Source of the DNA: a virus
IMG/VR virus record: IMGVR_UViG_3300032229_000533
Coordinates: 64,001 to 128,000 of that record
Strand: one strand, 5' to 3'
DNA: 64,000 nucleotides
Shown here: piece after piece, positions 718-57,415 of the stretch
Numbering within the stretch: position 1 is the first letter of the stretch
Layout: the number at the start of each line of letters is the position of its first letter
Notes under the pieces: generated by a model
The model's database searches: none
What the model was told of the DNA's origin: nothing
What the model saw: only the letters and a program-made list of their open reading frames with translations
Program-made: the position numbers and the translations under genes

Positions 718-2388
718 TTATGACTCTTTTCTTAAACTTCTTTCATAATGGTCAAACCTATCATGTTCAGTTGGGGTCATAAGTAATAACCCAGGATGTA
801 ATTCACCTTTTTTAACTAACTGATACATGTGACTCATCCATGTTTGTTCAAACGGGTGAGCCCAAGTTGTATCTAAAAACATTTTTTGATTACCTGTTCT
901 GCTTACAATCTGAGGCCAATTACAATAATAAACTTCACCTGTCACATATGGTACCCCTTGATATGTGTTAACAGAATCATAAACAGCTCTTGGAGCATTT
1001 GGGTCTAACCCTTGTTCAGGTAATCTATTTTTACCTGGCCAATATTTTTGTCTAACATTTTGTGGAACGTTGTACCAAGACCATTGGGTACCGTTATCAC
1101 CAAAGAATTCACTATAGTTAAGTTTTAAAAAATCAAAGTTTTCTTTTTTAACAATCTGTAGTGTTTTTGAATATAAGTTTGGAACATATCTATTAAACCC
1201 ATTACGACACACCTTACATTCATGTGGATAAAAGAACATGTCATCTTCAAAAAATAAGTAAAAATCTAAATCAGTTTCATTTTGAAAATGTTCGGCAATC
1301 CATTGACGACCACCACAAATACCTAAATTATCTTTTTTAATATGTTCAAAACCATACTCTTCACATAATTTCAAATATTCCTCAGTGGTTGACAAATCAC
1401 TTGAATTATCTAATAAGAATTTTTTTGTTTTAGAAATATAATCCTTATCGTATGCATTCATAGAATCAATTAAAGTTCTGAATTGATTAGGACTATTAAA
1501 TGTTATAACGTATAAACCAACTTTGTTCGTATCTAAAGTATTTTCTACTTTGATAGTACTTTCAGATTTAGGTTTTAATTCATTATTCTTTAAGTCTTCA
1601 AAAAATTTACCAAATAACCCATTAGATTCAATTTCAAAATAATTAATTAAATCCGAATGAGTGTAACACATTATACTAAAAATTGATTCTTCAGTTCCCA
1701 TATAATTTTCATCTAATGTAGTTTTTAGAAAATTATAATAGATACCATTAATATCGCTAATACTATGTTTTGGACCACCAAAAAATCCACCTCTGGCAAC
1801 TTTATTAACTTTTGCTCCTGCAATTGAATTCAACTTATTAAATTCAAATCCATGTATTTCGTTTTCTGCTTCATATGGAAAACAAACAAAAGAAAATTTT
1901 GAAATATATTTAGATAAGTTATTTAAAACTTTATCATGTGTAAAATATCCAGGATGAACCGTATTAGTTAGACCTGCGTCTATCCAAAACATCATTTCAG
2001 AATCAAATGGGTCCATGATTCTTGCATCGTTTAATAGAAACATTTTAGACATTACTAAAGGGTTATACATCTCTAATTTTGCCTGTGTTGATTCTGATAA
2101 CCACCCCGCCAAATTATACCAATCAGGGTTGGTTCTTATTTCTTGAATTTTATTGTAAAATTCATTTTTAAACCATTCTTGACTTCTATTAACAAATAAA
2201 GTATTTTCACGACTTCTTCTTTCAAAAACAAATGATTCTAATTCAGAATCACCAAAAATAATCATTGGATTATCAACTTTTAAAAGTTCTTCAAATTTAT
2301 TTAAATAGTGTTGAAATGAACGAGACCACCCTTGAGTAAGTCCGTCTCTTTTAATATTCCAAAGTCCTGTTACTAATGTTATTCCCAT
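718..2388 (-). CDS. two-domain glycosyltransferase (HtrL/YibB-like N-terminal + GT-A/GT2-like C-terminal)
   Basis: N-terminal ITLVTGLWNI...F.WIDAG typical of the HtrL/WlaTC family; C-terminal half has GICGGRQW and FFEDD (DxD-like) motifs. Confidence 0.7.
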   Translation of the reverse strand: MGITLVTGLWNIKRDGLTQGWSRSFQHYLNKFEELLKVDNPMIIFGDSELESFVFERRSRENTLFVNRSQEWFKNEFYNKIQEIRTNPDWYNLAGWLSESTQAKLEMYNPLVMSKMFLLNDARIMDPFDSEMMFWIDAGLTNTVHPGYFTHDKVLNNLSKYISKFSFVCFPYEAENEIHGFEFNKLNSIAGAKVNKVARGGFFGGPKHSISDINGIYYNFLKTTLDENYMGTEESIFSIMCYTHSDLINYFEIESNGLFGKFFEDLKNNELKPKSESTIKVENTLDTNKVGLYVITFNSPNQFRTLIDSMNAYDKDYISKTKKFLLDNSSDLSTTEEYLKLCEEYGFEHIKKDNLGICGGRQWIAEHFQNETDLDFYLFFEDDMFFYPHECKVCRNGFNRYVPNLYSKTLQIVKKENFDFLKLNYSEFFGDNGTQWSWYNVPQNVRQKYWPGKNRLPEQGLDPNAPRAVYDSVNTYQGVPYVTGEVYYCNWPQIVSRTGNQKMFLDTTWAHPFEQTWMSHMYQLVKKGELHPGLLLMTPTEHDRFDHYERSLRKES

Positions 2389-2407: not shown

Positions 2408-3355
2408 TTATAAAAAAATATTAAAATCGTCAAGAAAAGAAACGATTGTTTTAAATTGATTCTCAGGTAGACAATTATTAATAAACCATCTTTTTGATTC
2501 CTGAATCATATCATTATATTGGTTAGTCATACTAAACTCTAAAATCTCATTAACTTTTTCATCAATTATTGAATCAACGTTTTCTTTAGATAAAATTTTT
2601 TGTACCAAATCATCATTTATAAATTCAACATAATGAACATCCTTTATAATTGGTTCATAGGTTTTAGAATTAAGAGGTTGTCTCAAGTTTAAAACCCCGA
2701 GGCCAAATAATTCCAAGTCTCTATAACAAATGTTTGCAGCGCCATTTAAACTTAGCCCAAATCTGTGTTTAGAAACTTCATCATAATAGTCTTTCTTTTG
2801 TCTAAAATGTTCAGGGTTACCTTTTGTTCTAATATTAAAAAACGAATTATTTGATAATGAATTTAAAACATTTTCCCTAATACCGTGATTCAACCCGTTA
2901 AAATATGCTTTGTTGTCTTTAATTGATTGAGATTCAGTTGAAATTATGTATTCAATGTCTTTCCAATTTTCAACGTAATATACTGAAGGTTGTACAATAA
3001 TTTTATCTTTATACTCATCAATGATTGAATCGGTTAAATTAGAAACGCAAGAAAATTTAACAACATTAAAATTATTAGTTACAGAATATTTTAATATTTC
3101 AGGTGCATAGTCATACCAACTATGTACAAAAAATTTATCAGTAGTTTGATTGTAAATTACAAGGTTATACCAATTAAAAATATTACCTGTTTGATTGTTT
3201 AATGTTTTACCAAATCTGTGAGATAAATCACGTAAAGAAACATACTCAAATTGGATATTTGTTATTTCAGATAATTGTTTATGAAAATATTTGTAAAATT
3301 CACTAACATACCAATTATTATATCCTTGTTCGTACGATATGATTAATTTGTCCAT
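2408..3355 (-). CDS. putative GT-B glycosyltransferase
   Basis: C-terminal YYDEVSKHRFGLSLNG...CYRDLELFGLG pattern as in Glyco_trans_1_2/exostosin-like domains; lies in a glycan cluster. Confidence 0.55.
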   Translation of the reverse strand: MDKLIISYEQGYNNWYVSEFYKYFHKQLSEITNIQFEYVSLRDLSHRFGKTLNNQTGNIFNWYNLVIYNQTTDKFFVHSWYDYAPEILKYSVTNNFNVVKFSCVSNLTDSIIDEYKDKIIVQPSVYYVENWKDIEYIISTESQSIKDNKAYFNGLNHGIRENVLNSLSNNSFFNIRTKGNPEHFRQKKDYYDEVSKHRFGLSLNGAANICYRDLELFGLGVLNLRQPLNSKTYEPIIKDVHYVEFINDDLVQKILSKENVDSIIDEKVNEILEFSMTNQYNDMIQESKRWFINNCLPENQFKTIVSFLDDFNIFL

Positions 3356-4215
3356 TATTTTTCAGTTGCGTGTACCGTACCTGCTCTAGGTCCTGTTTTA
3401 TATCCATTAGGTGTAAAAACTTTACTCCATATAGGATGAGAATACGAAATATCTAAATCTTTAAATCCTGCGGTTAATGCTGATACTCCAATTTCAAAAC
3501 CTTCTGCCCAAGTACCAAAAGTATAATCTTTGTTATTTAAATAATCATAAAACCATTTCCATTGTTCTACCATTTTATTTAATTTACCGTTATTGTTATA
3601 AAAGATTATAAGATATTCTGAAGGAAATGATGCTTCACCCCACTTGTGGTTCTCACCTTCAACAACTTGATTGATATTTGTATCCACCAAATCATAGTTA
3701 AATAATTTATGCCATGCAAGTGTACACAAATCATAATCTAATGAGTCGGTGTGTGGATTTTTCTTACAAAATGTGTTGTATTTTGATATCAAATTTTTAA
3801 ACTTGAGTCCTGTTCTTGGTGCAAAATAATCATAACCATTTTCAAAATTTGTTTTAACAAAGTTTAAAACTTGTTCTTTATCCCACCAGTCAAAAGAATT
3901 ATCACAATCCGTAAAAATAATGATTGCGTCATCAATATTTTTTACATGGTCTAAACACAAATATCTCATGTTAAAATTAAAATCACGAGCACCTTTATTT
4001 GGTCCAATAGGTAACGAAACTTTTAAATCTTCACGTTTAATTTCGTTATATTTGATTCTATCTGAATTACCATATTTTTCTTCAATTAAATGTCTACAAT
4101 CAGTAGTTATGTACATTTCAATATCAGTTAAAGATAAAACATCTTCAATCATTCGTAGTGTGTAATCTTTAGTGTAATTTTCACCAAAGCTTAAAGTTGT
4201 TATTATTATTTTCAT
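3355..4215 (-). CDS. putative GT-A nucleotide-diphospho-sugar transferase
   Basis: IIIFTDCD DxD motif after a beta strand, FNFNMRY and EGFEIGVSA segments; cluster context. Confidence 0.5.
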   Translation of the reverse strand: MKIIITTLSFGENYTKDYTLRMIEDVLSLTDIEMYITTDCRHLIEEKYGNSDRIKYNEIKREDLKVSLPIGPNKGARDFNFNMRYLCLDHVKNIDDAIIIFTDCDNSFDWWDKEQVLNFVKTNFENGYDYFAPRTGLKFKNLISKYNTFCKKNPHTDSLDYDLCTLAWHKLFNYDLVDTNINQVVEGENHKWGEASFPSEYLIIFYNNNGKLNKMVEQWKWFYDYLNNKDYTFGTWAEGFEIGVSALTAGFKDLDISYSHPIWSKVFTPNGYKTGPRAGTVHATEK

Positions 4216-5099
4216 ATTACAATATTTGTTAGTTTAACTTTTTTTATGTTTATAGGATACCAATTAAATAAACTTGTATAACTCATATCTCCACAATAGT
4301 ATATGTTTTTACATTTACTTAATATTATTAATTCCCCAACAACATACAATGCTTCATCAATAGTTTGTCCAAACCTAACAAATCCAGTTGATATATAATT
4401 TGGGCTATGATTTTCTAAATCACGATACATTTTAATATCTAAATTAGTTTCTGAAAATACTTTTTTCACAAAACTAGAATTTGAACATATAAAATATTTT
4501 TTGTTTGGGTTTAAAGTTTCAACTAAACGGTTTTTAAAATTCAAAATTCGTTCAGAGTTGAGGGGAGGTAACGAGCGATAATATATAGATTCAAAATCTT
4601 CTTCAAAATTATCGGAAATAAATTTATTTACATTATTTACAATATCTTTATTAAAGACATCAAAATCTTTTGCTCTGTCGTCATTATCGTTAAATGTAAA
4701 ATCAATAAATGGTATGTTTAAATTTTTAACCTCATCATAGTTACTTGTTGGCACATACACATCAAAAATTCCGTTAGTGTCATTGAATACGTCATTATTC
4801 CTACCTGAATACAATCTCTTATATTCAATATCACCGTATGTTGAAAACCCATTTACGGATACAAATAAATTATCTTTATTTAAAATTTTAAATTCATCAA
4901 AAAACTCATTGAAAAAATCAATATTTAATACTTCCTCTAAAGTTTTAACATTGTACTTATCATTTATAAGTAAAATGAATTGAAAATTTGTGTATTGATT
5001 TTTTAAAAAATCAACACAATTAACAATATCAAACACACTTAAAAATGTGTCTCCCCATCCATTTTCAAAACTGAATTTAAATAAGATTTTATTATTCAT
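4212..5099 (-). CDS. putative fucosyltransferase-like GT-B enzyme (GT11/GT23/O-FucT-like)
   Basis: N-terminal GWGDTF loop, central YYRS, and C-terminal ELIILSKC...S.F, matching the FucT-type fold signature. Confidence 0.5.
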   Translation of the reverse strand: MNNKILFKFSFENGWGDTFLSVFDIVNCVDFLKNQYTNFQFILLINDKYNVKTLEEVLNIDFFNEFFDEFKILNKDNLFVSVNGFSTYGDIEYKRLYSGRNNDVFNDTNGIFDVYVPTSNYDEVKNLNIPFIDFTFNDNDDRAKDFDVFNKDIVNNVNKFISDNFEEDFESIYYRSLPPLNSERILNFKNRLVETLNPNKKYFICSNSSFVKKVFSETNLDIKMYRDLENHSPNYISTGFVRFGQTIDEALYVVGELIILSKCKNIYYCGDMSYTSLFNWYPINIKKVKLTNIVI

Positions 5100-5650
5100 T
5101 AATTATTTTTTTTCTTGAATGCACAGTAGTAATAATAGTGAGTACCCATATCAATTGGGATTTTTAATTCTTTACCGTTAAGATTAATCATTTCTAACAT
5201 TGGATAATGTTCTGCCATAATGGCGTCATCCAAGTCTGGTTGTAAGTGAATTTCATATTTATTACCAAAAACTTCATCTTGAGGCAAATAATATGGAACA
5301 ACAACGATTAGTTCTCTACATTTGTCTTTTAACTTATTTAAAAGGTTCTTAGCATCTTCTCTTGATAAGTGTTCAAGAATATCACCCATAATAATAATGT
5401 CATAATATTCAAACTCAAAATCTAATATGTTAACGTTGAATACGTTATCGTACATTTCGGTTAATTTATATTCCTCAATATAAGGTTCCCAAACTTCAAC
5501 CGCATCAAATTTTTTGAAGTAATCACCTAATAGTTTAATGTAGAATCCGTGACCACAACCAATGTCTAATATTGAACATGTTGGTTCAAAGTTTTCGGTT
5601 AAGTATTGTTTGACATCTGGGCCTAAATAACCCCAATTTCCTGGCATCAT
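5099..5650 (-). CDS. class I SAM-dependent methyltransferase
   Basis: ILDIGCGHG motif I; YDIIIMGDILEHL motif. Confidence 0.9.
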   Translation of the reverse strand: MMPGNWGYLGPDVKQYLTENFEPTCSILDIGCGHGFYIKLLGDYFKKFDAVEVWEPYIEEYKLTEMYDNVFNVNILDFEFEYYDIIIMGDILEHLSREDAKNLLNKLKDKCRELIVVVPYYLPQDEVFGNKYEIHLQPDLDDAIMAEHYPMLEMINLNGKELKIPIDMGTHYYYYCAFKKKNN

Positions 5651-5654
5651 AGTT

Positions 5655-6524
5655 TTAATTTATAAATTTTTTTAGTTTATGTTTTATATTTTCATCTGAA
5701 TTTAAAATGTTATTAAGTATATCTTTAGAATTAACATTAGCTTCTAAAAATTTACCATGTCTAACAATCTCAATATAATCAATTAATAGAAAATCTGTAG
5801 ATAATGGTTTTTCATCTACATGATATGTGATTGGCGGATAGTGGTAACAGAAATTATTGAACCCATAATCAAAAAAGTTTTCTTTGTTTTCGTAAAAAGA
5901 AAAATTAAAAAACTCACTTAATTGTCTATTTTCACCTTTCTTGTTTAAGATATTGGTATTATCTAGTTGATGTAAAGTAAGTGATGGGTTGTGGGTTAAT
6001 AATTCTATTAGAGAAGATTTTTTCCAAACACATGGTTGTACTGAATACATATGTCGTGCAGTCACATCAAATTTATAAAAACATCCATCAGGAAACCCAT
6101 ATTCCGATAATGTTATATTTGGTTTTTCCCAATTAACCACAAAATTTTCAATGTGTTTTTGTGTACCCAAGGCTAAATAATCACCATTAATTTTATCTAA
6201 AATATTAATAATGTTATCAAATCTATTTTTATTTATTGGTGATTTAATTAGATAATCATCACACAAGAATAATATATAATCTTCAGGTATCTGATTTAAT
6301 GCGAATAATAAACTATCTCTAAAATGTGAACCATCACCTGAAAAATTAACATTTGAATCAATATAATTTACCCCATCAAATTTTTCATGTTGAGGTATTT
6401 TATTTGAAACAACATTAATTGTCTTGTTTAAATCTTTTGTGTTTTCTATTGTATAAGGCAGTGTTAGATACAATAAGTCAAAATAGTTTTCATTGGTAAA
6501 AACTACAAATGATATGTCTTTCAT
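5655..6524 (-). CDS. putative GT-A glycosyltransferase
   Basis: YILFLCDDY (DxD-like), YSVQPCVWKK, IVRHGK pattern seen in glycan-locus proteins. Confidence 0.55.
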   Translation of the reverse strand: MKDISFVVFTNENYFDLLYLTLPYTIENTKDLNKTINVVSNKIPQHEKFDGVNYIDSNVNFSGDGSHFRDSLLFALNQIPEDYILFLCDDYLIKSPINKNRFDNIINILDKINGDYLALGTQKHIENFVVNWEKPNITLSEYGFPDGCFYKFDVTARHMYSVQPCVWKKSSLIELLTHNPSLTLHQLDNTNILNKKGENRQLSEFFNFSFYENKENFFDYGFNNFCYHYPPITYHVDEKPLSTDFLLIDYIEIVRHGKFLEANVNSKDILNNILNSDENIKHKLKKFIN

Positions 6525-6526
6525 AT

Positions 6527-7885
6527 TTATTTTTTATTTTCTAAATAAAAGTTTAAGTCTTCTGGAGTACCTAAACCCCACATATTATTAACTTCGTAAA
6601 CTCTTATTTTTTTATTGTCTTCTACCGCTTGATTGAAAACAGGACATACATAAAATTCATTATTGACTCTAATATTTTTTTGAATCATTTGTTCGGCGTA
6701 TTTTACAAAATCTGAACCATGTTTCCAATAATAAAAACCAACCGTTGCGTTATCTGAAATTGGATTTTTTTCTGCAACTTCACTAACGTATCCATTGTCA
6801 TCTACTTTTGCAAAAGACCATTTAGGGTGAGTCGCTTTAAAAGTTACGATACCACCATCCGCGTCAGTCTCATTCATTTTATACATGAATTCATTTGAAT
6901 CCCATTCAACAAACTGGTCTGAGTTTGCAAAAAACAAAGGCGAGTTATTGTTAATATATTCTTTAGCTAATAATGCAGTACAAGCTGCTCCTTCTGTAAT
7001 ACCATCAACCTCAACAATTTTACAATTTGGGGTTATTAAATTTAAGAGTGTATCTAAATTATATTTTTCACGATGTGATTTTTGGACCACATAAATGTAA
7101 TTTGCGTTTATGTTTAGATTGTCAACCACAACTTGAATCATTGGTTTATTATGAACATCAATAAGAGGTTTTGGAAATGTGTAACCTGCTTGTTGAAATC
7201 TTGAACCCGCACCCGCCATTGGGATTAGTACATTTAAATTATTATCTTCCCATTTTGGTGTCATAATATTGTGTCCTGATTTTATTTCTAATATTTTTTT
7301 TGTTATGTTAATGTAGGTAACCTCAATCGGAGATTTTACTCTAAATACATGTGACTTACTTCTTGACGCAGCTAATAAACCGTAAGGAGAATCCTCAACA
7401 ATTAATGTTTCTTCAGGTAAACACCCTACCATAGATATTGCCTTCCAATAAATTTCAGGATGTGGTTTTGAATTTTTTACATCTTCGTTTGAAAGTATTA
7501 AATCAAAAAACTCAATAATACCCAACTTACTCAAAACAGTTAAAACAGTTTTTCTAATACTATTAGAACATACCGCTAATTTATAACCTTCATTAACCAA
7601 CATAGTCATTGTTGTTACCAAATCAGGGTTATATTTTAAAGTTCTTAACGATTGTAATGTATAGGTTTGTTTATTGTCCCAAATCTCTTTAAATTTTTCT
7701 TTAGGTAAACCTTTTCGTTCATGTAACATATCTAATTTTTGATTGGTTTTTAAACCATCATAAATTGATAAATGTTCATCCCAAGTGATAGAATAATCAC
7801 CTAACGCTTTATTTAAAGATTCATAATGAATTTCTTTAGCGTCAACCAATACACCATCTAAATCAAATATTATTGTTTTAATCAT
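6527..7885 (-). CDS. HAD phosphatase fused to sugar-phosphate nucleotidyltransferase
   Basis: N-terminal FDLDGVL, KPHPEIY and VEDSPYG (HAD motifs); C-terminal IPMAGAGSRF...PKPLI, NSDQ and GLGTPEDL (NTP-transferase). Confidence 0.9.
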   Translation of the reverse strand: MIKTIIFDLDGVLVDAKEIHYESLNKALGDYSITWDEHLSIYDGLKTNQKLDMLHERKGLPKEKFKEIWDNKQTYTLQSLRTLKYNPDLVTTMTMLVNEGYKLAVCSNSIRKTVLTVLSKLGIIEFFDLILSNEDVKNSKPHPEIYWKAISMVGCLPEETLIVEDSPYGLLAASRSKSHVFRVKSPIEVTYINITKKILEIKSGHNIMTPKWEDNNLNVLIPMAGAGSRFQQAGYTFPKPLIDVHNKPMIQVVVDNLNINANYIYVVQKSHREKYNLDTLLNLITPNCKIVEVDGITEGAACTALLAKEYINNNSPLFFANSDQFVEWDSNEFMYKMNETDADGGIVTFKATHPKWSFAKVDDNGYVSEVAEKNPISDNATVGFYYWKHGSDFVKYAEQMIQKNIRVNNEFYVCPVFNQAVEDNKKIRVYEVNNMWGLGTPEDLNFYLENKK

Positions 7886-8312
7886 TATATCTTTTTATAA
7901 AGTCTGAGCATACACCCAAACATTTTGAAATGTCGTCATTATGTATTTCAGGCATAACCGCAATACTTCCAGTTATAGGTTGTTTACCAGGATATACCCA
8001 CATATAATTTTTAGATGTTAATGTTAGTGTATCTTGTTCATGCCAAAAATAATGTAATGAGGTACTTCTAATCCAATTTAAAGATTCAACATTCTTACAA
8101 TGAATCCATAATTTATCAACTCTTTCACCTAACCACTCATCACTAACTTCATATTGTGGTTCATCGTGTCCTAAATAAACTTTACCATCAACCCACCATA
8201 AGTCAACTTCAACATCGTATCCTTCAGCAATAGCTTCCATAATATAATATGGTGAGTTTTCTCTAACCTCATTAGGACCGTTTAAATTTCCTCTATGTGA
8301 AATTAATATCAT
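7878..8312 (-). CDS. PLC-like/GDPD-like phosphodiesterase domain protein
   Basis: ISHRGN, DVEVD, LGHDEP and WIHCKN motifs of the short GDPD-like family. Confidence 0.75.
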   Translation of the reverse strand: MILISHRGNLNGPNEVRENSPYYIMEAIAEGYDVEVDLWWVDGKVYLGHDEPQYEVSDEWLGERVDKLWIHCKNVESLNWIRSTSLHYFWHEQDTLTLTSKNYMWVYPGKQPITGSIAVMPEIHNDDISKCLGVCSDFIKRYND

Positions 8313-9577
8313 TAACTCACGGTATTATGTGTTAATTGACCTGTAATTCTATCACACCATCCTTTTGATTCTGAGTGAGGCCAAACCACCCAATGTGAAG
8401 GTAACTCATCAGTTTGAAATTCTCTCCATACCTTACAATATTTGTCAGGGTCTCTCATGAAACCTGCAATTTCATTTTTGTCTGCGTCTTTACGGAACAA
8501 TGTTTTATCGTCTTTACCATGGAATGCAACAACCCAAAAATCATAATCAGTTTCAGGAACTTGAGAATATCCGATATCAATACAATGTTTGAACATCATA
8601 CAAAAACTATCTCTCCATTCTTGTTCTGTTTCAAAATTATATGGGTTAGGAGGATAATTTTTATCTAAAGTATATTTGTCAATTGCTCTTTTTGAAAAGA
8701 GAATACCAGCATATTTTTCATAATCTGTTAAACTTCTAACAGGACCAAAACCATAAGGACCATCATGACCTTCTTGAGTTTCACCATCCATACCAAATAA
8801 TTTTCTATTTGTTAAGTGCGAATGACTATTTTTTTGTCCCCAAGTTTTATCATCATCCCATTGTTTTGTTCTACCTTTACGAGTGTACTCATGATAAACA
8901 ACAGGAATATGTGGATGGAATAAATCATAACCCCAAGTGTAAGCTCTTGCAGCGATTGAAATCTCTTCACCGTGGAAATAATATTCAGGATTGTGTTGAA
9001 CTTCGGTTGAGAATTGACCTAATGTGAAACAGAAGTGAGCAGAATAGAATCTTGCAGTTACAGGTTTTGTCATCTCTTTCCAACCTGGAATTGTTTCAGG
9101 TAAGAAGAACACAGCTCCTTCAGGAATGAATCGGTCAAACACCATTCTCCAAGCATCGGTTGCTCTTCCTGCTGGGTCGTTCTCGGGGTCAAAAGAAGGA
9201 ACGTAGCCCGTAAGTAGAGGCTTTTTATAACCGTCCTTCTGTAACCCCTTTATCATCTTGATAAGGATGTCATCCCAATCCTTAACAAATCTCATGTGAG
9301 AATCAATTTGTAATGTGTACGTTTCACCTTTATAAAGTTGTTGAACTTGGTGTCTTGCCCAACATACACCTTTGGCATCTTGATATGGAATATCTAAGAT
9401 TCTAAATCTTTTGTCATTTTTATATTCATCTAAGTTATCAAATCCGTCTTCAGGACTATATTGTCTAGCAATACCGATAACAAGGTTATTTGGTTTTTTG
9501 GCATTTGCCAACATGTCTTTAATAGTAGGAACCAACTGAGGGTCTCTGTAAGATGCTATTTGAACGAATATTTTCAT
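8312..9577 (-). CDS. GT60-family (GlcNAc transferase, Skp1/polypeptide alpha-GlcNAc-T-like) glycosyltransferase
   Basis: IFVQIASYRD, GVCWAR, YTLQIDSHMRF, FHGEEISIAARAYTWGYDLFHP and VYHEY match the conserved GT60 blocks. Confidence 0.85.
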   Translation of the reverse strand: MKIFVQIASYRDPQLVPTIKDMLANAKKPNNLVIGIARQYSPEDGFDNLDEYKNDKRFRILDIPYQDAKGVCWARHQVQQLYKGETYTLQIDSHMRFVKDWDDILIKMIKGLQKDGYKKPLLTGYVPSFDPENDPAGRATDAWRMVFDRFIPEGAVFFLPETIPGWKEMTKPVTARFYSAHFCFTLGQFSTEVQHNPEYYFHGEEISIAARAYTWGYDLFHPHIPVVYHEYTRKGRTKQWDDDKTWGQKNSHSHLTNRKLFGMDGETQEGHDGPYGFGPVRSLTDYEKYAGILFSKRAIDKYTLDKNYPPNPYNFETEQEWRDSFCMMFKHCIDIGYSQVPETDYDFWVVAFHGKDDKTLFRKDADKNEIAGFMRDPDKYCKVWREFQTDELPSHWVVWPHSESKGWCDRITGQLTHNTVS

Positions 9578-9603
9578 GTATAATATAATTTATACATAAA
9601 AAT

Positions 9604-9633
9604 AAAAAACCCTCCACAAAGGTGAAGGGTTTT
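9604..9633 (-). terminator. intrinsic terminator
   Basis: AAAACCCT-CCAC...GTG-AAGGGTTTT hairpin followed by a U-tract on the minus strand, downstream of 9655..11130. Confidence 0.7.
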
Positions 9634-9654
9634 CTAAAATATATTGTTTTGATT

Positions 9655-11130
9655 TTAGAACGCCGCATTTAAAACATTTGCACTGTTTGATAATAATGAT
9701 TGGTTACCTGAGCTTGGTTGGTCACCTGTTGTTTGATTCGAACTATCCCAAGAACTTTTAGGTAAACTTCCTAATAAGAAATCTGTAACAGCATTGTTTA
9801 ATGATGCTTGGGTAAACGCACAATCACTAATATCAATTAGTGTTAATGTTTGTGGTAATGTTGGTAATGAAGACAATACCGTACAACCTCCAGCAGATAA
9901 CAATGTAAGTGTATTTGGTAAGTTTGGTATTGAAGTTATTTGTGTATTTAGATTCATCAATAAATTTTGTAATGATGTTCCTGATAGTTGAGGTAAACTT
10001 GTTAAACTTGTTGTACCATATATTTCTAACGTAACTAAAGTTGAAGGTAATGATGGTAATGACGTTATTGAGGTGTTATAGTTCAACTTCAATGTTGTTA
10101 ACGATGTTGCCGATAATGTCGGTAACGATGGTAAGTTAACAAAACCTGCGTTTAAAGACACCAACGAATCAGGTAATTGACTTATACTTGTAAAATTAGT
10201 TTGTTGTAAAATATTAATATTAGTTACATTAAAAACGCTTGCTGTAATGTCTCCTGAAGTGTTATTAAACGCAGTAACAACCGCATTAGGGTTGTTATTA
10301 ACATTAGGTGAAGTACCACCACTAATTAACCAATTTTGGAAATCTTGTTGTGTAAATCCTGTCCATGTGCTATTTTCTAATTGAATGTATTCAATTGTTG
10401 GTGTAGTACTTGGTGTTGGTGTGTTAGTTGGAGTTATTGATGGTGTGACCGTGTTTGTCGGTGTATTTGTTGGAGTTTGTGTTAAAGTTGGTGTTTGAGT
10501 AGGTGTTGGAGTAGGACAGGTACCATATACTGAAATAGTTGAGCCAGTAATACAACCTATACCACAACTTCCATTTACCAAATAAATTATTCCATTTTCC
10601 ACATAGTATCCCTCTGGATTACCAGTATTTACCCCAAATTGGTCAGACCAAGCTAATGTAGAATTGGACAGGTTTGTTCCATTAACAAATAAAGTCGCTG
10701 TTTGTAAACAAGCGCAGGCCCCATTTGGGTCACCTTCGTCATGGCAAATTCCCGCGAGAACAGTTCTAACAATATTGGTAGGTGTTAGTGTAATTGTTGG
10801 AGTTGTAGTAACAGTTGGTGTAACCGTATTTGTTGGAGTTGTAGTAACAGTTGGTGTTACTGTATTAGTAGGTGTTATACTTGGTGTTGGGGTTGGGGCT
10901 TGAGTTCTTGTTGGAGTTGGAGTTAATGGGTATACTCCGTCATTAACTAATACGATACTTGACTCAAAAATTTGAGCAACGTCATAAGTTCCGTCAATTA
11001 ACCAAATATTTTTAGTTTGATTTGGTAATAGATTTACTTGATATTCCCACATGGAATCGTCACATCTTCTGTAATTGAAGTTAATCGCTGTTGTACCAGT
11101 ATTTGTCAAAGTATATTTACTACACGCCAT
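9655..11130 (-). CDS. Thr/Pro-repeat protein with C-terminal leucine-rich repeats (putative virion surface protein)
   Basis: Cys-containing N-domain, two TP-repeat tracts, and C-terminal LPxLPxxLxxL repeats. Confidence 0.7.
   Translation of the reverse strand: MACSKYTLTNTGTTAINFNYRRCDDSMWEYQVNLLPNQTKNIWLIDGTYDVAQIFESSIVLVNDGVYPLTPTPTRTQAPTPTPSITPTNTVTPTVTTTPTNTVTPTVTTTPTITLTPTNIVRTVLAGICHDEGDPNGACACLQTATLFVNGTNLSNSTLAWSDQFGVNTGNPEGYYVENGIIYLVNGSCGIGCITGSTISVYGTCPTPTPTQTPTLTQTPTNTPTNTVTPSITPTNTPTPSTTPTIEYIQLENSTWTGFTQQDFQNWLISGGTSPNVNNNPNAVVTAFNNTSGDITASVFNVTNINILQQTNFTSISQLPDSLVSLNAGFVNLPSLPTLSATSLTTLKLNYNTSITSLPSLPSTLVTLEIYGTTSLTSLPQLSGTSLQNLLMNLNTQITSIPNLPNTLTLLSAGGCTVLSSLPTLPQTLTLIDISDCAFTQASLNNAVTDFLLGSLPKSSWDSSNQTTGDQPSSGNQSLLSNSANVLNAAF
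10400..10925 (-). repeat. two Thr/Pro coding repeat tracts (approx. 10400-10515 and 10780-10925)
   Basis: Degenerate (GGTGTT/GGAGTT)n on the plus strand, encoding TPTPT/TPTNT/TPTVT. Confidence 0.85.
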
Positions 11131-11144
11131 AATTTTATTTTATA

Positions 11145-11152
11145 TATAAATA
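11145..11152 (-). promoter_or_regulatory. TATTTATA motif (putative late promoter)
   Basis: 14 nt upstream of ATG 11130. Confidence 0.6.
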
Positions 11153-11161
11153 TAAAGAAAT

Positions 11162-11192
11162 AAAAAAACCCTCCACGAATGTGAAAGGGTTT
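11162..11192 (-). terminator. intrinsic terminator, paralogous to 9604..9633
   Basis: AAAACCCTCCAC-gaat-GTGAAAGGGTTT hairpin plus U-tract on the minus strand. Confidence 0.7.
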
Positions 11193-11229
11193 CTAAAATA
11201 TATTGGTATTGTTTTTTTTTTATTAAAAA

Positions 11230-11871
11230 TTATAGTGTTGGGGTTGGTGTTGGAGTTGGAGTGCCACTTGGTGTTTGAGTTTGAGTATTAGTTGGTGTTT
11301 GAGTATTAGTTGGTGTTATACTTGGTGTTGGAGTTGAAGTTGCACTTGAGGTTGGTGTTTGAGTATTAGTTGGTGTTTGAGTATTAGTTGGTGTTTGAGT
11401 TTGAGTATTAGTTGGTGTTTGAGTTGGAGTCTCACTTGGTGTTTGAGTTTGAGTATTAGTTGGTGTTTGAGTTTGAGTATTAGTCGGTGTTTGAGTCGGT
11501 GTTTGAGTTGCCGTAACACTTGGTGTTGGAGTATTAGTTGGTGTTTGAGTTTGAGTCTGAGTTGGTGTTTGAGTTTGAGTCTGAGTTGGTGTTTGAGTTG
11601 CCGTAACACTTGGTGTTGGAGTCTGAGTTGGGGTCTGAGTTGGAGTTCTTGTCGGAGTTGGAGTTAATGGGTATACTCCACTATCAAATAATACAATACT
11701 TGACTCAAAAATTTGAGCTGTATCATAAGTTCCGTCAATTAACCAAATATTTTTAGTTTGATTTGGGTCAAGGTTTACTTGATATTCCCACATAGAGTCA
11801 TCGCATCTTCTATAGTTGAAGTTAATCGCGGTTGTACCCGTATTTGTTAAAGTATATTTACTACAAGCCAT
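11230..11871 (-). CDS. mucin-like protein: N-terminal domain paralogous to 9655..11130, followed only by Thr/Pro/Gln repeats
   Basis: First ~75 aa near-identical to the 491 aa neighbour; the remaining ~140 aa are almost purely TPTQT/TPTNT. Confidence 0.8.
11236..11665 (-). repeat. Thr/Pro/Gln tandem coding repeat
   Basis: Repeated GTTGGTGTTTGAGT(ATTA/TTGA) units. Confidence 0.9.
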
Positions 11872-11888
11872 CTTAAATTCTGTTTAAA

Positions 11889-11896
11889 TATAAATA
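11889..11896 (-). promoter_or_regulatory. TATTTATA motif
   Basis: 17 nt upstream of ATG 11871. Confidence 0.6.
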
Positions 11897-11950
11897 CTAC
11901 ATTATTGTTTATTATTTTGAAATTTATTTAAATTTTATAATTTGTGTATA

Positions 11951-14050
11951 TTACACAACAATAATTGGTTCTGCAACAATTGTTCCTCCACTTAAGAATG
12001 TTAACTTTTGACTACTATCCGCAGCATCTAATACAACATTCACAGGTATATTTGTGTAAAGTATTGGATTACCACCAGTTCCACCTGAAAGAGTATAATT
12101 TCCTGTTAAACCAGTAAATGTGAAATTATTGTTTTCACAATTACCTGAATAATCATAATCTCTGAACATTACGCCCTGCACTCCATAAGAAGTTCTATTA
12201 TTAACAAAATAATCAGCAATATCGTTATTAGCAAATTGGTCACCAATTGTATTATCATAGAAATATTCTCCGATAACATTACCTTGGAAACCATTTCCAA
12301 TTACATTACCTCTATAGTTTCCTCCTCCGAATCCAAAATCATTTGCAATTGTATTATTAATAAAGATATTACCAATTTGGTTGTATGAAAAATTGGTTGC
12401 TATTGTATTACTACCAAAGTCATATCCGACTTTATTATATTGGGATGCTCCTGTGATAACATTGTCACTAACATTCCCTTGGAATGAATTATACTGAAAG
12501 TAATAACCTTCAATGTTGTTCACATCACCTATAGTATTCCTATAGAAATTAGAACCTAAACTATTTTCTGTAACAATGTTGTAAAAATTATTTTCGTAAA
12601 AGAGTGGTCCGCCAGTATTTTTTTCAAAGTTACCGTAGAAATTATTGGTATATACATCAGTTCCAAGTACATTATCTCTAAATGTTTGTGTGATGTTGTT
12701 AGTGTTAAATCCGTTACCAATTTGATTGTCATCAAAAGCGCCTGTTATGGTATTATACGCAAAGTTATTACCAATTACGTTTCTTGCAAAACTAAGATGA
12801 ATTACATTTTCAACAAAATTATTACCAATTATATTGTTGATACAATCGCTATCACTGAAAGTAAAAAAGTTGTTTCGGAATCCCCAACCTACTTGATTAA
12901 AATCAAAATCTTGCCCGTCATTGTCTCCTAACATATTATATTGAAAATTACCAACAACAGTATTCCCTTGAAAATCACATTCTATAAAGTTGAATTTGAA
13001 ATCAGGACCAATAGTACTTCTATCAAAATTATTGGTTATAATATTATATTGGAAAAATGGTGCACAGGTGGTGCTGGTCATAAAATTGTCAAACGTGTTA
13101 CCAACAACATTACCTTCAAATGTCATATCTTCATAATTACCACCCTGAAACACGTTGTTAGACAAAATAAAGTCACTATAATTTTGATTGTCACCTAAAT
13201 ATGTGTTGAAGTTTTGATTTGCGTTGAATGTGTAATATTCGGTAAATCCTGTGTAGGATTCTGATTGTACGTTACATTTAAATGGGGACCTTATACCTCC
13301 CATAAGACCTCGTGAATAAAATCTATTACTTGTGGGATAGAAGGTTGTACCTGTTACTGTCATACCCGATACACTTGGAACAGTTAAAATTTCATAATAC
13401 GCAAAACCACCAATAAGGTTAGTGTTTGTTGTTGATATACCTAAAATTTGACCAACACTAAAATCGTTGATAAAATCAGTACCGACTCCGACAACATTAC
13501 CTGAACCATCTATTGACACGGTACCTCCATAATAAGCTTCAGAAAAAAATGCTTGATATCTAATAAACTGAACCGCTCTGAAGTCGTAATCTGCTCGGTT
13601 ATTTTTTTCATCAATTCTTTCGGTAATTCTACCTTTTGCAGGTGAACCTGTTACTTCAGTGGTACTCCAAGTAAAATCATATGATATTTTATCTTTAGGA
13701 TAAAGTGTGGAATATACAGTTGGTGAGAATTCATTTGCTGATATTGCCAACAATAAAATTGGTTCTGTAGTTCCTGTTTTATAATTTCCTGTTGTTATTG
13801 CAACACCCTGATTATCATAATTTGGTTGGTCATAACAAGTTTGGAAATCTGTCATTAAATAATATTGACCAACAATTAAACTACTAGTACTAGACCCTAT
13901 AGTTAATCCTGAATACGTAGATTGAGTATAGTTAATACCTGAAAAGGGGATATGATAAGTCGTACCCGCCTCTTCAACTGGAATTAAAAGGTTATTTGTT
14001 GTATAATCTAATGCGGTTAATTCGCCGATTGTTTTTCCTGTAAGTGCCAT
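11951..14050 (-). CDS. tail fibre/receptor-binding-like protein with right-handed beta-helix repeats
   Basis: C-terminal ~350 aa of ~11-residue Asn-rich repeats (GNxFxxNxI); N-terminus of phage fibre style. Confidence 0.6.
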   Translation of the reverse strand: MALTGKTIGELTALDYTTNNLLIPVEEAGTTYHIPFSGINYTQSTYSGLTIGSSTSSLIVGQYYLMTDFQTCYDQPNYDNQGVAITTGNYKTGTTEPILLLAISANEFSPTVYSTLYPKDKISYDFTWSTTEVTGSPAKGRITERIDEKNNRADYDFRAVQFIRYQAFFSEAYYGGTVSIDGSGNVVGVGTDFINDFSVGQILGISTTNTNLIGGFAYYEILTVPSVSGMTVTGTTFYPTSNRFYSRGLMGGIRSPFKCNVQSESYTGFTEYYTFNANQNFNTYLGDNQNYSDFILSNNVFQGGNYEDMTFEGNVVGNTFDNFMTSTTCAPFFQYNIITNNFDRSTIGPDFKFNFIECDFQGNTVVGNFQYNMLGDNDGQDFDFNQVGWGFRNNFFTFSDSDCINNIIGNNFVENVIHLSFARNVIGNNFAYNTITGAFDDNQIGNGFNTNNITQTFRDNVLGTDVYTNNFYGNFEKNTGGPLFYENNFYNIVTENSLGSNFYRNTIGDVNNIEGYYFQYNSFQGNVSDNVITGASQYNKVGYDFGSNTIATNFSYNQIGNIFINNTIANDFGFGGGNYRGNVIGNGFQGNVIGEYFYDNTIGDQFANNDIADYFVNNRTSYGVQGVMFRDYDYSGNCENNNFTFTGLTGNYTLSGGTGGNPILYTNIPVNVVLDAADSSQKLTFLSGGTIVAEPIIVV

Positions 14051-47719: not shown

Positions 47720-49525
47720 TTATCTCAATTCTCTTAAGTCGAATGTTCTAACACCATCAACTGTGATACGTCCGTAGAATCTGTTATTCACCATTTTCTT
47801 AGCGTATCTAGTCATGATACCTTTGATTGGTGTAAAGTTGAACGGATTGTACATAGTTGGAGTTAATTGTAGAGGTACGTACGGTGCGTAGATGTAACCT
47901 GTGTCTAACAATGATGTTCCTTTGTGTCCCATTAACACTTGGTTAGGTGGGAAGTAAGGGTCACGGTAAACTTGGTAACGACCTGCTAATGTACCAACTC
48001 TTTCAATACCCATGTTGTATTGGTCTTGCTCAGGAGCTGCATTTGATACGTGGAAATATTCCAAGTCATCAAAGATTGCACTGATTTCAGAAGAAACAAC
48101 AATCCAGTTTGCTCCACCTCTTAATGTAGATTTGTGGATTTGTGCTGAAATTTGGTTGATTGCTGTGATTAAAGTTTGGTTCCAATCTTTTTGAGTGTAA
48201 GGAACTGCACTTGAACCAAGACGTTTCCAACCATTGTAGTCCCATCTTAAGTTCCAAGCTGCACCTTTACGTAAATCTCTTAAGATTTCACGGTCGATTT
48301 CAGCCGCAACTTGTTCAGATAATAAAGCTGTTAATTCAGCTTCAGCATCAATGTTGTGGAACGCTGCAACGTCTTGAGCCATTTCTGGAGACCATTGAGC
48401 TCTTAATTTTCTTTCAGTTACAGAAACTGTTACTGACATAAGGTCAAACGATACCTCACCGATTCTATCTTCAAACTCTAAGTTTTTGTAGATTCTGTAA
48501 GTTCCCGTAAATGCTGCGTTACTTGCAGTTGTTGAAGAGAATGTTGAACCTGTGTAACCGTCCATAGAACCACCACAAGTGATACATACTGGAACTTGTA
48601 AGTCAACTTCTAAGTAGATTTTACCTTCAGCGTCACATAAGTTGTCATATTGACCACCATCAGTTTTACTGTTAGGGAATACTAACGTAGCGTTGTTGTT
48701 ACCGTATTGTACAATACCTTTACCGTATCTTTGAGTTACAACTCTGAATAAGTAAGGATTACTTGCGTTTGCCGCAGTTGTTGGGTTACCAGCAACTCCG
48801 TAGATAGTTAAATCAGATAAGAAAGCTTCGTTATCCATTGGTTGACCATCAGGACCGATTAATTTACCAGCTCCATCAGATGCAAAACCTGACATAACAA
48901 CTAATACTTTTCTGTAATCAGAAGTAGTATAAGCTGAAGGTACTAAATTGTCATCTAACCAAGCAACAGTAACAACTGGTGCAGTGATTGCTGAATATTG
49001 TCCTTTAGAATAGTCAAATAAACCTGGTGGGTCTAATGCTGGTTCGTTACCTTCGTAGAATCTATCGTAAAGGTCTTTAGTGTTGTTGTAATCGTAACCA
49101 CTGTTTGGAGTTTGGTCCGAAGCTGCGTTTGGTGAACCATACGGTGCATAGTGAATACCTGTATTCGCTAAGTTAGTTGGGTCAGTGTACGCTTGGATGT
49201 TAGGTACAAAGTAGAATAATTTACCAATAGGTAAGTTCATAGCTTGTACTGATACGATGTCATTCGCTAATAATTTAGAGAATACACGTCTAACAATTGG
49301 GAAAACTACTGTTTCAAATGCACCTGTATCAGATGTAGATGATGCTTCATTGATTAAGAATGATGCTTGGTTTTCGTATAATTGTGCTACGTTTTCTCTC
49401 ATGTGACCTTTAAGACCTTCTAAAAAGCCTAATTTGTCCCATTTGTTGATTGTGTCTTCTTTGATAACTTTAAGGTGTTTTAAACCGATATTACCAACAA
49501 GACCTGATTCTAATAATGCTCCCAT
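47720..49525 (-). CDS. gp23: major capsid protein (T4 gp23-like)
   Basis: VFPIVRRVF, VSVQAM..P.G.LF, RKLRAQWSPEMAQD, AEIDREI, YAPYVPL, TPIKGIMTRYA. Confidence 0.95.
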   Translation of the reverse strand: MGALLESGLVGNIGLKHLKVIKEDTINKWDKLGFLEGLKGHMRENVAQLYENQASFLINEASSTSDTGAFETVVFPIVRRVFSKLLANDIVSVQAMNLPIGKLFYFVPNIQAYTDPTNLANTGIHYAPYGSPNAASDQTPNSGYDYNNTKDLYDRFYEGNEPALDPPGLFDYSKGQYSAITAPVVTVAWLDDNLVPSAYTTSDYRKVLVVMSGFASDGAGKLIGPDGQPMDNEAFLSDLTIYGVAGNPTTAANASNPYLFRVVTQRYGKGIVQYGNNNATLVFPNSKTDGGQYDNLCDAEGKIYLEVDLQVPVCITCGGSMDGYTGSTFSSTTASNAAFTGTYRIYKNLEFEDRIGEVSFDLMSVTVSVTERKLRAQWSPEMAQDVAAFHNIDAEAELTALLSEQVAAEIDREILRDLRKGAAWNLRWDYNGWKRLGSSAVPYTQKDWNQTLITAINQISAQIHKSTLRGGANWIVVSSEISAIFDDLEYFHVSNAAPEQDQYNMGIERVGTLAGRYQVYRDPYFPPNQVLMGHKGTSLLDTGYIYAPYVPLQLTPTMYNPFNFTPIKGIMTRYAKKMVNNRFYGRITVDGVRTFDLRELR

Positions 49526-55651: not shown

Positions 55652-57415
55652 TTAGCGCGAACCAAATAACCATCCATATTTTTGGTAATCAGCCTTGGTG
55701 GCCTCACCTTGATTATTCATACCATTACCCCTACCCATTTGTGGAACCATTGGGTTAAAGAAATCAGAAGAGTTTTTATTTTCATTAACCGTGGTTGCCC
55801 ATGAGTTAATCATTGCTTTAGTATGATTAGTTACTTTCTCTAAAGATTGAAACGATTTTTCCGCAACATACAACGCCATGGAAACACCCATAATACAGTC
55901 ATCATGATGACCTTTTTGGTGGTCAGGTCTACCGTTGATATATACAAACGTATTCATTTCATTGTATAATCTATTTGAATATACTTTAAATCCATGCCTA
56001 ACACCTTCTTCAAATGATGCAATAATCTGAACCCTTTTAGAGTTAAAATTAATACCAGGAATTTTTTCGTTAATTTTTGGGTCCCATTTCCACTTATTAC
56101 TTGTATCAACGTTATCAATATATAAACCACCCTGATAGTTTAATTCTTGTAATTTTCTCGCAGTAGAAATACCCATACCCCCTGTGATATCAATTACACA
56201 GTAAGCATTATACATTGTCCCCCATTTATATGCTATTTCAGCCAATACATCAGGTGGAATTTTTGCAACGTATTCTAATACTTGTTCTCTTTCATCAAAA
56301 TCAATAATTTGGATACACGAAAAGTCCTCAGAATCACCACGAGATACATCCACACCCATAACGTATTTGTGACCGTTTACAGGTTCTTTAAATATCCACA
56401 ATGAACCACCCATAAGTTTAGCTTGTGGTTCACGTAAAGTATTTTTAGCAATACCTTGCATTAATTCAGATTCAAATACGTTATCACCTGAACCTAAGAA
56501 GTTACATTCCAACTCTTGAGCTACTTTTCTTCGGTCAAACTTTAACTTTTTAACCATACTTTCAAACCACGCAGAACATGGTTTATATCCTTGGGAGATG
56601 TAATCAGTTACAACAGAATGGTCTCTGTCGTATGGATTTTCCATAGACAAATCAACAATATCTTTATCAGAATATTCTTCTCGGTTTAACAAATAGTGAA
56701 CCAAATCATTAGTTTTAACCATATACAAATCTTTTGTATATCTTGGGTCACGATACCAAAACATCTCAGATATTTTGAAATCGTTCATGTTTCTTAATGA
56801 CTGGTCATAGATTTCATAGTAGATTGGGTCATATCCGTTTGGAGTGGATACAACAATAACTTTACCCCCTGTAGATAGGGACGCCATACACGCAGACCAG
56901 AAATCTGAATCCGCTTCAATAAACGCCGCCTCGTCAAATACAAGGATAGTAGGGGTATAACCCCTCAAAGCATCCTTTGACGTTGCAACCGCTTTTACTT
57001 CACAGTCGTTACTTAATTTGAAATGTCTTTGGGAATTTTTTTCTTTTGAAAAAGTAACTCCGACCCATGCAGGCCATTGTTCTGTAAACCCTCTCACCTT
57101 GTTAGCCATCTCCATTGAGGTATCTAACTTGTTTGCAATTATAAGGATTTTTTCAGGTTTGTTCTTTTTGGCAAATACTAATCTTTTAGATATCCATGCC
57201 GCAGTTACGGTGGATACACCTGCCTGACGATACTTCAATGCAATATTTTCATTGTAGTTATCGTAATCTTCAATTAAACTAACTTGGTCGGGAAATAAGT
57301 CCAATGGGACATATTTGGATACGGTATTATCGTATGTTTGTAAGTAAGTACGAAGTGCGTAAGGAGTATTCCTCATACACTTCGTAACTTCAATAATCAG
57401 TTGTTCTCTATTCAC
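55652..57415 (-). CDS. terL: terminase large subunit
   Basis: LKYRQAGVST (Walker A), VFDEAAF (Walker B), VSTPNG, QELEC.F.GS, MGVDVSRG, GHHDDCIM nuclease motifs. Confidence 0.95.
   Translation of the reverse strand: MNREQLIIEVTKCMRNTPYALRTYLQTYDNTVSKYVPLDLFPDQVSLIEDYDNYNENIALKYRQAGVSTVTAAWISKRLVFAKKNKPEKILIIANKLDTSMEMANKVRGFTEQWPAWVGVTFSKEKNSQRHFKLSNDCEVKAVATSKDALRGYTPTILVFDEAAFIEADSDFWSACMASLSTGGKVIVVSTPNGYDPIYYEIYDQSLRNMNDFKISEMFWYRDPRYTKDLYMVKTNDLVHYLLNREEYSDKDIVDLSMENPYDRDHSVVTDYISQGYKPCSAWFESMVKKLKFDRRKVAQELECNFLGSGDNVFESELMQGIAKNTLREPQAKLMGGSLWIFKEPVNGHKYVMGVDVSRGDSEDFSCIQIIDFDEREQVLEYVAKIPPDVLAEIAYKWGTMYNAYCVIDITGGMGISTARKLQELNYQGGLYIDNVDTSNKWKWDPKINEKIPGINFNSKRVQIIASFEEGVRHGFKVYSNRLYNEMNTFVYINGRPDHQKGHHDDCIMGVSMALYVAEKSFQSLEKVTNHTKAMINSWATTVNENKNSSDFFNPMVPQMGRGNGMNNQGEATKADYQKYGWLFGSR

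Follow-up and report, generated by a model that had tools for sequence, protein, structure and literature searches.

The acceptors of the GT60 enzymes of Dictyostelium and Trypanosoma cruzi are Thr-rich, Pro-containing mucin-like repeats, and the protist GT60 polypeptide enzymes are Golgi type II membrane proteins. To our knowledge, UDP-N-acetylglucosamine (UDP-GlcNAc) is the sole donor known for this glycosyltransferase (GT) family. Characterised members all act on the polypeptide itself, and GT60 has been described as a relative of family GT27 that lacks the ricin-type domain (PMC8724618). Here we describe a GT60 gene, P0001, in a 64,000-nucleotide stretch of phage DNA (the window; bases 64,001-128,000 of the 182,339-bp IMG/VR record IMGVR_UViG_3300032229_000533, 32.6% G+C, estimated 61% complete). 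P0001 has the family, the fold and the conserved catalytic motifs of such a transferase but neither signal peptide nor membrane anchor, and GT60 is recurrently coupled in genomes to genes for proteins with Thr-Pro (TP) repeats. We regard P0001 as a soluble, cytoplasmic, Mn2+-dependent GT-A enzyme that most likely adds N-acetylhexosamine (HexNAc) to Thr of TP-repeat phage proteins, a reading to which we give a probability of roughly 60%.

P0001 shares the PF11397/GT60 domain, the kinship to GT27 and the lack of a ricin domain with Dictyostelium pp-alphaGlcNAcT2/GntB and the T. cruzi enzymes (PMC8724618). Unlike these protist proteins it is known from sequence and model, has no anchor, must act in the bacterial cytoplasm and carries an extra beta-sandwich domain of ~125 amino acids (aa). 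The mucin-like acceptors of the protist enzymes are comparable to the TPTVT and TPTNT tracts of the phage. Gnt1, the GlcNAc-transferase that modifies hydroxyproline (Hyp) of Skp1 in Dictyostelium and Toxoplasma, is also a GT60 protein and, like P0001, soluble and cytoplasmic; the phage genome moreover encodes an oxygenase resembling prolyl 4-hydroxylase (P4H). In contrast to the Gnt1 system, this oxygenase is not conserved with GT60 in relatives, and the acceptors here would be long repeats, not a single Hyp. A Skp1-like acceptor would not be expected in a phage, and none was noted (no search was aimed at one). The metazoan GT27 N-acetylgalactosamine (GalNAc)-transferases share the DxH metal motif with P0001, supply its closest solved structures and also have a second domain C-terminal to the catalytic one. 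P0001 differs from them in its low identity (11-17%), in having no Pfam GT2 or ricin match, and in a C-terminal domain whose best matches are FN3/Ig-like.

Systems of similar logic are found outside the family. The genes for GtfA/GtfB, which serve serine-rich repeat adhesins, and for SgtA adjoin the gene of an acceptor rich in repeats; GlcNAc is attached while the acceptor is still in the cytoplasm, ahead of export or assembly, and further GTs encoded nearby lengthen the glycan. SgtA works in this manner on the repeat-rich BclA3 of C. difficile (PMC7157674). Unlike P0001, these Gram-positive enzymes belong to the unrelated GT4 and GT2 families, and their repeats are Ser-rich or collagen-like, not TP. 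In mycobacteriophages, GTs of other families reportedly act on C-terminal extensions of capsid and tail-tube proteins, not on TP-repeat fibres through GT60. According to the citing paper, the targets of these phage-encoded GTs are structural proteins of the virion, modified within the host cytoplasm (Freeman et al. 2023 as cited in PMC10877033). The GT60 family and phage virion glycosylation were already known; what would be new is a cytoplasmic GT60 paired with TP-repeat acceptors, recurring in phages, with VgrG spikes and with substrates that have twin-arginine (Tat) leaders.

The assignment of P0001 to GT60 is secure. The Pfam profile PF11397 ('GlcNAc') matches the uninterrupted open reading frame (ORF) with E 1.1e-66 (226 bits, cut-off 21) over profile positions 2-44 and 95-349 of 352, and the match was recovered again in a whole-genome profile scan. 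It is the only Pfam match at E <= 0.01; neither GT2 (Glycos_transf_2) nor Ricin_B_lectin was found at that threshold. PHROG 24687 ('glycosyltransferase') aligns with residues 2-412, so the C-terminal extension is part of a recurrent phage protein. The motif blocks QIASYRDP (residues 6-13), LQIDSHMRF (89-97) and HGEEISIAARAYTWGYD (202-218) are all present. All 43 full-length homologues that were aligned (35-85% identity) share D92 and H94 of the DxH motif, E204, E205, R211, H229 and W240; H229 would be the third metal ligand if read across from GalNAc-T2.

The AlphaFold2 model of P0001 (mean predicted local distance difference test score, pLDDT, 94.8) has a Rossmann-like alpha/beta core. Its first beta strand begins at residue 3, leaving no room for a signal peptide or membrane anchor. 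The top ~46 Foldseek matches in the PDB are almost all GT27 polypeptide GalNAc-transferases, the closest named folds being GalNAc-T2, T4, T1 and T12, PGANT9 and Toxoplasma GalNAc-T3 (E 1e-10 to 1e-8, with GalNAc-T2 at 1.4e-10; template-modelling score about 0.5), whilst a PDB sequence search returned nothing at E <= 1. GT27-like folds and the absence of a Pfam ricin match agree with the published picture of the family (PMC8724618). A first-pass annotation, made from the sequence alone, had claimed that all GT60 hallmark blocks are present, that the protein belongs to GT60 and that this family is kin to GT27; the three motifs it quoted, the profile match and the fold search bear it out on each count.

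Residues ~296-421, beyond the PF11397 match, are modelled as a separate beta-sandwich of about seven strands (pLDDT 93.4). VIA-align returned generic FN3/Ig-like sandwiches only (Z 7.2, a commonly seen level); the other matches to the domain were weak sandwiches of carbohydrate-binding-module type. Foldseek against the PDB gave no match at E <= 1e-3, and a protein-atlas feature search gave no usable one. The structure matches, all weakly scored, include no beta-trefoil, lectin or ricin-type fold. The domain has four cysteines, none of them in a conserved column of the 43-sequence alignment, and about half of the GT60 homologues end near residue 300 without it. The Cys-containing C-domain of ~90 aa described at first pass therefore exists as an extra domain with cysteines, but it is larger than stated and the cysteines are not conserved; its suggested role as a lectin or substrate module finds no backing in these results. 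The family also has giant members (P0129, P0130, P0131 and P0142; 1,600-2,460 aa), in which separate GT60-like stretches number up to four or five.

Four candidate acceptors, P0002, P0003, P0125 and P0126, are encoded upstream of P0001 on the same strand (Table 1). The stop codon of P0002 at 9655 is separated from the GT60 start at 9577 by a 77-nt spacer, and P0002 does contain the TPTVT repeats, along with TPTNT, so both the abutting TP cassette and its repeat type had been correctly recognised. P0125 resembles a PHROG 'virion structural protein'. Three further TP-rich ORFs (981 aa, 527 aa with 43% Thr+Pro, and 1014 aa) lie upstream of the window at G000:C1:719-9482; TP-repeat proteins are therefore spread over at least two regions of the genome.

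Since an acceptor is not provable in silico, we asked whether GT60 and TP repeats co-occur where gene order is independent, using a DNA pattern for TPTxTPTxT and its non-complemented reverse as an internal control. Within the phage's own lineage (GT60 85-99% identical to P0001), the pattern occurs in 73 of 80 IMG/VR loci. In nearly all loci that include upstream DNA, GT60 is immediately preceded by between one and four co-oriented TP-rich ORFs, whose number and length vary widely, making a hypervariable cassette beside a conserved transferase. Only four of 50,697 isolated-phage records hold a GT60 homologue: Xanthomonas phages Xoo-sp13 and XacN1 and Stenotrophomonas phages CM1 and RAS14. The TP scan took in the homologue-bearing phages Xoo-sp13, XacN1 and CM1 (43-49% identity to P0001; RAS14 was left out) and found 29, 39 and 10 matches, respectively, with 47 in the present genome, against none in nine large phages without GT60, which include the closest polymerase and capsid relatives (Fisher p 0.0014; the four GT60 phages compared form one clade and count as one independent lineage).

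Sampling from the repeat side gave a concordant picture. PF11397 was found in 10 of 72 IMG/VR records picked by the TP pattern, eight of them from the phage's own lineage (70-95% identity) and two distant (G070, 36.5%; G036, 34%). Among 60 records picked by the reversed pattern it was found in one, itself TP-rich with 44 matches (p 0.012 against the TP sample). An unrelated GT60 query that took no account of TP led to the viral contig L355, where a TP ORF lies 1.6 kb from GT60. Single divergent GT60 queries against IMG/VR gave one locus for P0183 and none for P0152.

One of these relatives has been studied experimentally. XacN1 ORF334 is 46% identical to P0001 over the full length, C-domain included, and the 39 TPTxTPTxT sites of XacN1 are spread over ORF232-237, ORF370-372 and ORF384. 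In the published work at least two virion bands stained Schiff-positive, and ORF334 and ORF328 were named as the only GTs of the phage; the GT family, the glycoproteins and an acceptor motif were not assigned (PMC5852040). XacN1 is like the present phage in its full-length homologue and its TP sites, has virions that stain as glycoproteins, and differs in that the homologue lies away from the TP genes. By analogy, the staining would provide indirect experimental support for TP repeats as the acceptor. ORF384 (AP018399.1 272200-280671), annotated as a glycerophosphoryl diester phosphodiesterase, is a giant protein of virion size with TP repeats.

GT60 homologues are present in at least 558 bacterial species genomes, and the family has at least 4,543 cluster representatives. 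The best 80 bacterial homologue loci were surveyed for the TP pattern within 10 kb. It is present in 20 loci from many phyla, and in some the nearest TP ORF is just 34-500 bp from GT60. Across 45 whole genomes, GT60 loci hold 219 of the 968 TP matches in about 0.4% of the DNA. Nearly every match of the genome is at the GT60 locus in Ralstonia sp. 25C (53/55) and an Achromobacter (43/44), and every match in Paraburkholderia ferrariae (42/42) and Paraherbaspirillum soli (14/14). In these four Burkholderiales genomes (5-8 Mb) the matches sit in a single gene 0.9-3.7 kb from GT60, whose product is a VgrG spike (Phage_GPD, Phage_base_V, Gp5_trimer_C) that ends in a (TP)n tail. This suggests that the VgrG spikes are glycosylated.

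At seven loci, from Myxococcota, Acidobacteriota, Gammaproteobacteria, Actinomycetota and Bacteroidota, the GT60 neighbour combines a twin-arginine-like leader with TP or S/T/P repeats downstream of it. These proteins are mostly 170-290 aa long; the larger ones of Bacteroidota (381 and 584 aa) have a sorting domain for type IX secretion at the C-terminus. Their glycosylation ahead of Tat export, while still in the cytoplasm, would fit this arrangement. When 85 GT60 sequences were placed on a maximum-likelihood tree, TP-adjacent members turned up in all parts of it: the label takes 18 changes for 20 labelled rows, and shuffled labels need no more than that, so the coupling does not go back to a single inherited gene order.

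The closest cellular relatives of P0001 are in metagenome-assembled genomes (MAGs) of Saprospiraceae, Lewinellaceae and Bacteroidia (61-71% identity). At the best-resolved of these loci, in Saprospiraceae (L359:8504-13092, on a 230-kb contig), the GT60 is 69% identical to P0001. Divergently oriented on one flank is the gene for a protein that combines a Tat leader, (SPTPTTSVSPSNSI)n repeats and a type IX secretion sorting domain; the opposite flank encodes an HtrL_YibB+GT2 protein 63% identical to the product of the phage gene at 718-2388. In the phage, GT60 is the first of nine tightly packed minus-strand genes and HtrL_YibB+GT2 the last. The end genes of the phage block would thus correspond to a two-enzyme module found beside a mucin-like protein in Bacteroidota, which supports the functional reading. 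The shared module also hints at gene exchange with Saprospirales, a possible host group. The phage capsid protein was sought in Saprospiraceae, Lewinellaceae, Bacteroidia and Planctomycetaceae MAGs and not found (weak evidence); their GT60 loci were therefore treated as bacterial.

The first-pass proposal that TP repeats are the acceptor is, on these comparisons, well supported by independent evidence, with XacN1 staining as an indirect addition; the Hyp option that came with it appears unlikely. Several points weigh against an acceptor role. No TP pattern lies within 10 kb of GT60 in 60 of the 80 bacterial loci, and 18 of 40 bacterial genomes have none anywhere. The homologue in XacN1 and Xoo-sp13 sits beside a carbamoyltransferase and near DNA polymerase, with no TP ORF within 8 kb. 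TP-rich phages without GT60 exist (G040 and G002), and TP tracts also serve as ordinary passive flexible linkers. A terminator-like hairpin parts GT60 from the TP genes, and co-transcription is improbable. We found no biochemical or mass-spectrometric data for P0001 or any prokaryotic or phage GT60, and the literature searched contained no paper on phage or bacterial GT60 or on its pairing with TP repeats. The IMG/VR record G040 (139,964 bp, 94% complete) has 152 TPTxTPTxT sites and no PF11397 gene; its TP-repeat proteins would be either unglycosylated or served by another enzyme.

Some of the same facts would suit an enzyme that builds or modifies a polysaccharide, lipid-linked glycan or small molecule, such as a host envelope glycan, with TP adjacency as inherited gene order. 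GT60 heads a nine-gene block of sugar-related enzymes, the XacN1-group homologue, set apart from TP genes, keeps company with a GT9 and a carbamoyltransferase, and most bacterial loci have no TP gene within 10 kb. We nevertheless consider a non-protein substrate unlikely. The TP association recurs in lineages whose gene order is unrelated, and the TP proteins involved are unrelated too (phage fibres, VgrG spikes, Tat-leader proteins). A Pfam scan of the ORFs of 1-27,139 picked out neither a flippase nor a polymerase nor a polyprenyl-phosphate transferase. Characterised GT60 members and the closest solved folds are, furthermore, polypeptide transferases.

It is rather improbable that another GT of the cluster adds the first sugar to the TP proteins and GT60 only elongates. 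Several unassigned ORFs and the HtrL/GT2-like protein in the same block could supply such an enzyme, and GT60 with HtrL/GT2 is a conserved bacterial module whose order of action is not readable from sequence. Characterised GT60 enzymes, however, transfer to the polypeptide itself and the closest folds are initiating polypeptide GalNAc-transferases. GT60 is also close to a TP gene in many bacterial loci, where other GTs were not surveyed.

A Skp1-type route, in which a phage P4H converts repeat Pro to Hyp and GT60, in the manner of Gnt1 of Dictyostelium and Toxoplasma, attaches GlcNAc to the Hyp, is quite improbable. In its favour, P0001 is soluble and without a membrane anchor, like Gnt1, and a search for the 2-oxoglutarate (2OG)-Fe(II) prolyl hydroxylase envisaged at first pass did recover a PF13640 P4H-type oxygenase in this genome (197 aa, G000:C1:161,500-162,093, E 1e-13). 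At the Lewinellaceae MAG locus L362, a PF13640 gene even lies between a helix-turn-helix/peptidase gene and the S/T/P-repeat protein adjoining GT60. This is, however, the exception. The phage oxygenase gene is ~88 kb from GT60, just one of the 80 bacterial loci has a PF13640 gene near GT60, and the family is absent from Xoo-sp13, XacN1, CM1, G036 and G070 and from G010, a same-lineage genome (321 kb, complete) with GT60 and TP repeats. 2OG oxygenases of this family are, besides, common in aquatic phages. Since relatives with GT60 lack PF13640, the system does not in general depend on hydroxylation; Thr linkage by direct transfer is therefore favoured over Hyp. The oxygenase gene belongs to a small cluster outside the window (locus L001, G000:C1:160,500-163,200). 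Its companions there are a 193-aa ORF on the opposite strand, of no known family, and a glycosyltransferase resembling GT17 (334 aa, PF04724 E 6e-9).

Glycosylation of phage DNA (a hypermodified base) against restriction, as by T4-type glucosyltransferases, is very improbable: the phage has T4-like head and packaging genes and the XacN1-group homologue is near DNA polymerase, RNase H and NUDIX genes, but GT60 is widespread in bacterial chromosomes beside TP proteins, no hydroxymethylase turned up beside GT60 (no search was aimed at one), and the DNA glycosyltransferases known to us belong to other families and folds.

The source of P0001 is a large freshwater phage. The record contains T4-like genes for the major head protein (47720-49525), portal (53758-55614) and large terminase (55652-57415), and by capsid protein the closest isolated relatives are Flavobacterium phage immuto and Microcystis phage Mel-JY01 (42-45% identity). 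Related contigs of up to 321 kb with terminal repeats place it in a lineage of jumbo phages known from environmental metagenomes. No isolated phage matched positions 7000-12000 by Megablast. The major head protein (minus strand, 601 aa) has T4-like capsid matches in two pieces over ~55% of its length, which suggests a large inserted or added domain.

The spacer between P0002 and P0001 contains the hairpin and, after it, TATAAATT 12 nt ahead of the GT60 ATG. GT60 and the TP genes are therefore adjacent but probably separate transcription units, with GT60 probably beginning its own. Near-identical terminator-like hairpins (CCCTTCAC...GTGGAGGG, then a T-run; minus strand) stand 3' of P0002 (9603-9636) and of P0003 (11169-11188). 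Taken with their almost identical first ~65 residues, these make P0002 and P0003 look like duplicated cassettes. Among the genes downstream of GT60, the fusion of a HAD-like domain with a nucleotidyltransferase probably makes an activated sugar or phospho-substituent, and the HtrL_YibB/GT2-like protein is a probable elongating transferase. Four ORFs within 2408-6524 have no Pfam or PHROG match even at E <= 1.

Table 1 Features of the P0001 locus and of bacterial GT60 neighbours. Positions refer to the window unless a locus name precedes them.
Feature	Position	Strand	Basis or description
GT60 (PF11397) glycosyltransferase gene P0001, 421 aa	8312..9577	-	ORF, Pfam, PHROG, alignment, AlphaFold model, Foldseek
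P0001 catalytic GT-A domain, residues 1-~295	~8693-9577	-	DxH motif D92/H94, HGEE 202-205, invariant H229
P0001 C-terminal domain, residues 296-421	8315..8692	-	beta-sandwich with FN3/Ig-like best matches; model, structure search
Terminator-like hairpin between TP/LRR (leucine-rich repeat) gene P0002 and GT60 gene	9603..9636	-	in the 77-nt spacer
Candidate acceptor 1, P0002, 491 aa	9655..11130	-	N-terminal ~65-aa domain, TPTNTVTPTVT repeats, Cys-rich middle, second TP tract, LRR-like C-terminal repeats
Candidate acceptor 2, P0003, 213 aa	11230..11871	-	N-terminal domain as in P0002, then just ~140 aa of TQTP/TNTP repeats (49% Thr+Pro)
Candidate acceptor 3, P0125, 1095 aa	14076..17363	-	several globular domains with long TPTNTETPTNT linkers between them, C-terminal Laminin_G_3 domains
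Candidate acceptor 4, P0126, 189 aa	17347..17916	-	PTPTPTPV tract
144-aa ORF, second gene of block, start overlaps GT60 stop	7878..8312	-	phrog_34507 (function unknown), no Pfam match
HAD phosphatase/mutase-like domain + nucleotidyltransferase fusion	6527..7885	-	domain search
S-adenosylmethionine-dependent methyltransferase	5099..5650	-	domain search
Four co-oriented ORFs without assignment	2408-3355, 3355-4215, 4212-5099, 5655-6524	-	no family match
HtrL_YibB-type protein with C-terminal GT2-like part, 556 aa, ninth and last gene of block	718..2388	-	domain search
Type VI secretion system (T6SS) VgrG with (TP)n tail of 30-110 residues	L430:12267-15131, L385:13900-16389, L404:15049-17520, L435:15075-17564	-	0.9-3.7 kb from GT60
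Tat-leader TP or S/T/P-repeat proteins	L384:4189-5064, L391:6940-7452, L406:6880-7476, L410:11563-12243	+	beside GT60
Tat-leader TP or S/T/P-repeat proteins	L358:2684-3412, L362:7997-9751, L359:8504-9649	-	beside GT60

We propose a mechanism for which acceptor, sites, sugar, anomeric linkage, initiating role and the parts of the downstream genes are inferred. During infection P0001 would take HexNAc from a UDP-sugar and attach it to the hydroxyl groups of Thr within the TPT(x)T repeats that link parts of structural or fibre proteins of the phage, the candidates being P0002, P0003, P0125, P0126 and the further TP-rich ORFs upstream of the window. This transfer would start a mucin-like O-glycan, which the eight downstream genes, among them the HAD-nucleotidyltransferase, the methyltransferase and the HtrL/GT2-like transferase, would then both lengthen and decorate. 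More tentatively, and at slightly less than even odds, GT60 may represent a system, widespread in prokaryotes and phages, that puts mucin-type O-glycans on Thr/Pro repeats in the cytoplasm. Its clients (fibres, VgrG and Tat proteins) would leave that compartment folded or assembled, the eukaryotic GT60 and GT27 enzymes would descend from it or share its origin, and the virion would gain a hypervariable glycosylated coat.

Phage virion glycosylation has rarely been described so far. If the proposal is true, phages have a new route to glycosylate their own virions, through the family that starts mucin-type O-glycans in protists, and the acceptor motif would be defined and easily synthesised. A positive test of it would also give a function to the thousands of unannotated bacterial and phage GT60 genes counted above. 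T6SS VgrG spikes and Tat-exported TP-repeat proteins would be suggested as glycoproteins, and the result would bear on a prokaryotic origin of eukaryotic mucin-type glycosylation. For the phage itself, it would explain why hypervariable TP-repeat genes lie beside a large block of sugar enzymes, and the glycan coat could affect adsorption, stability or recognition.

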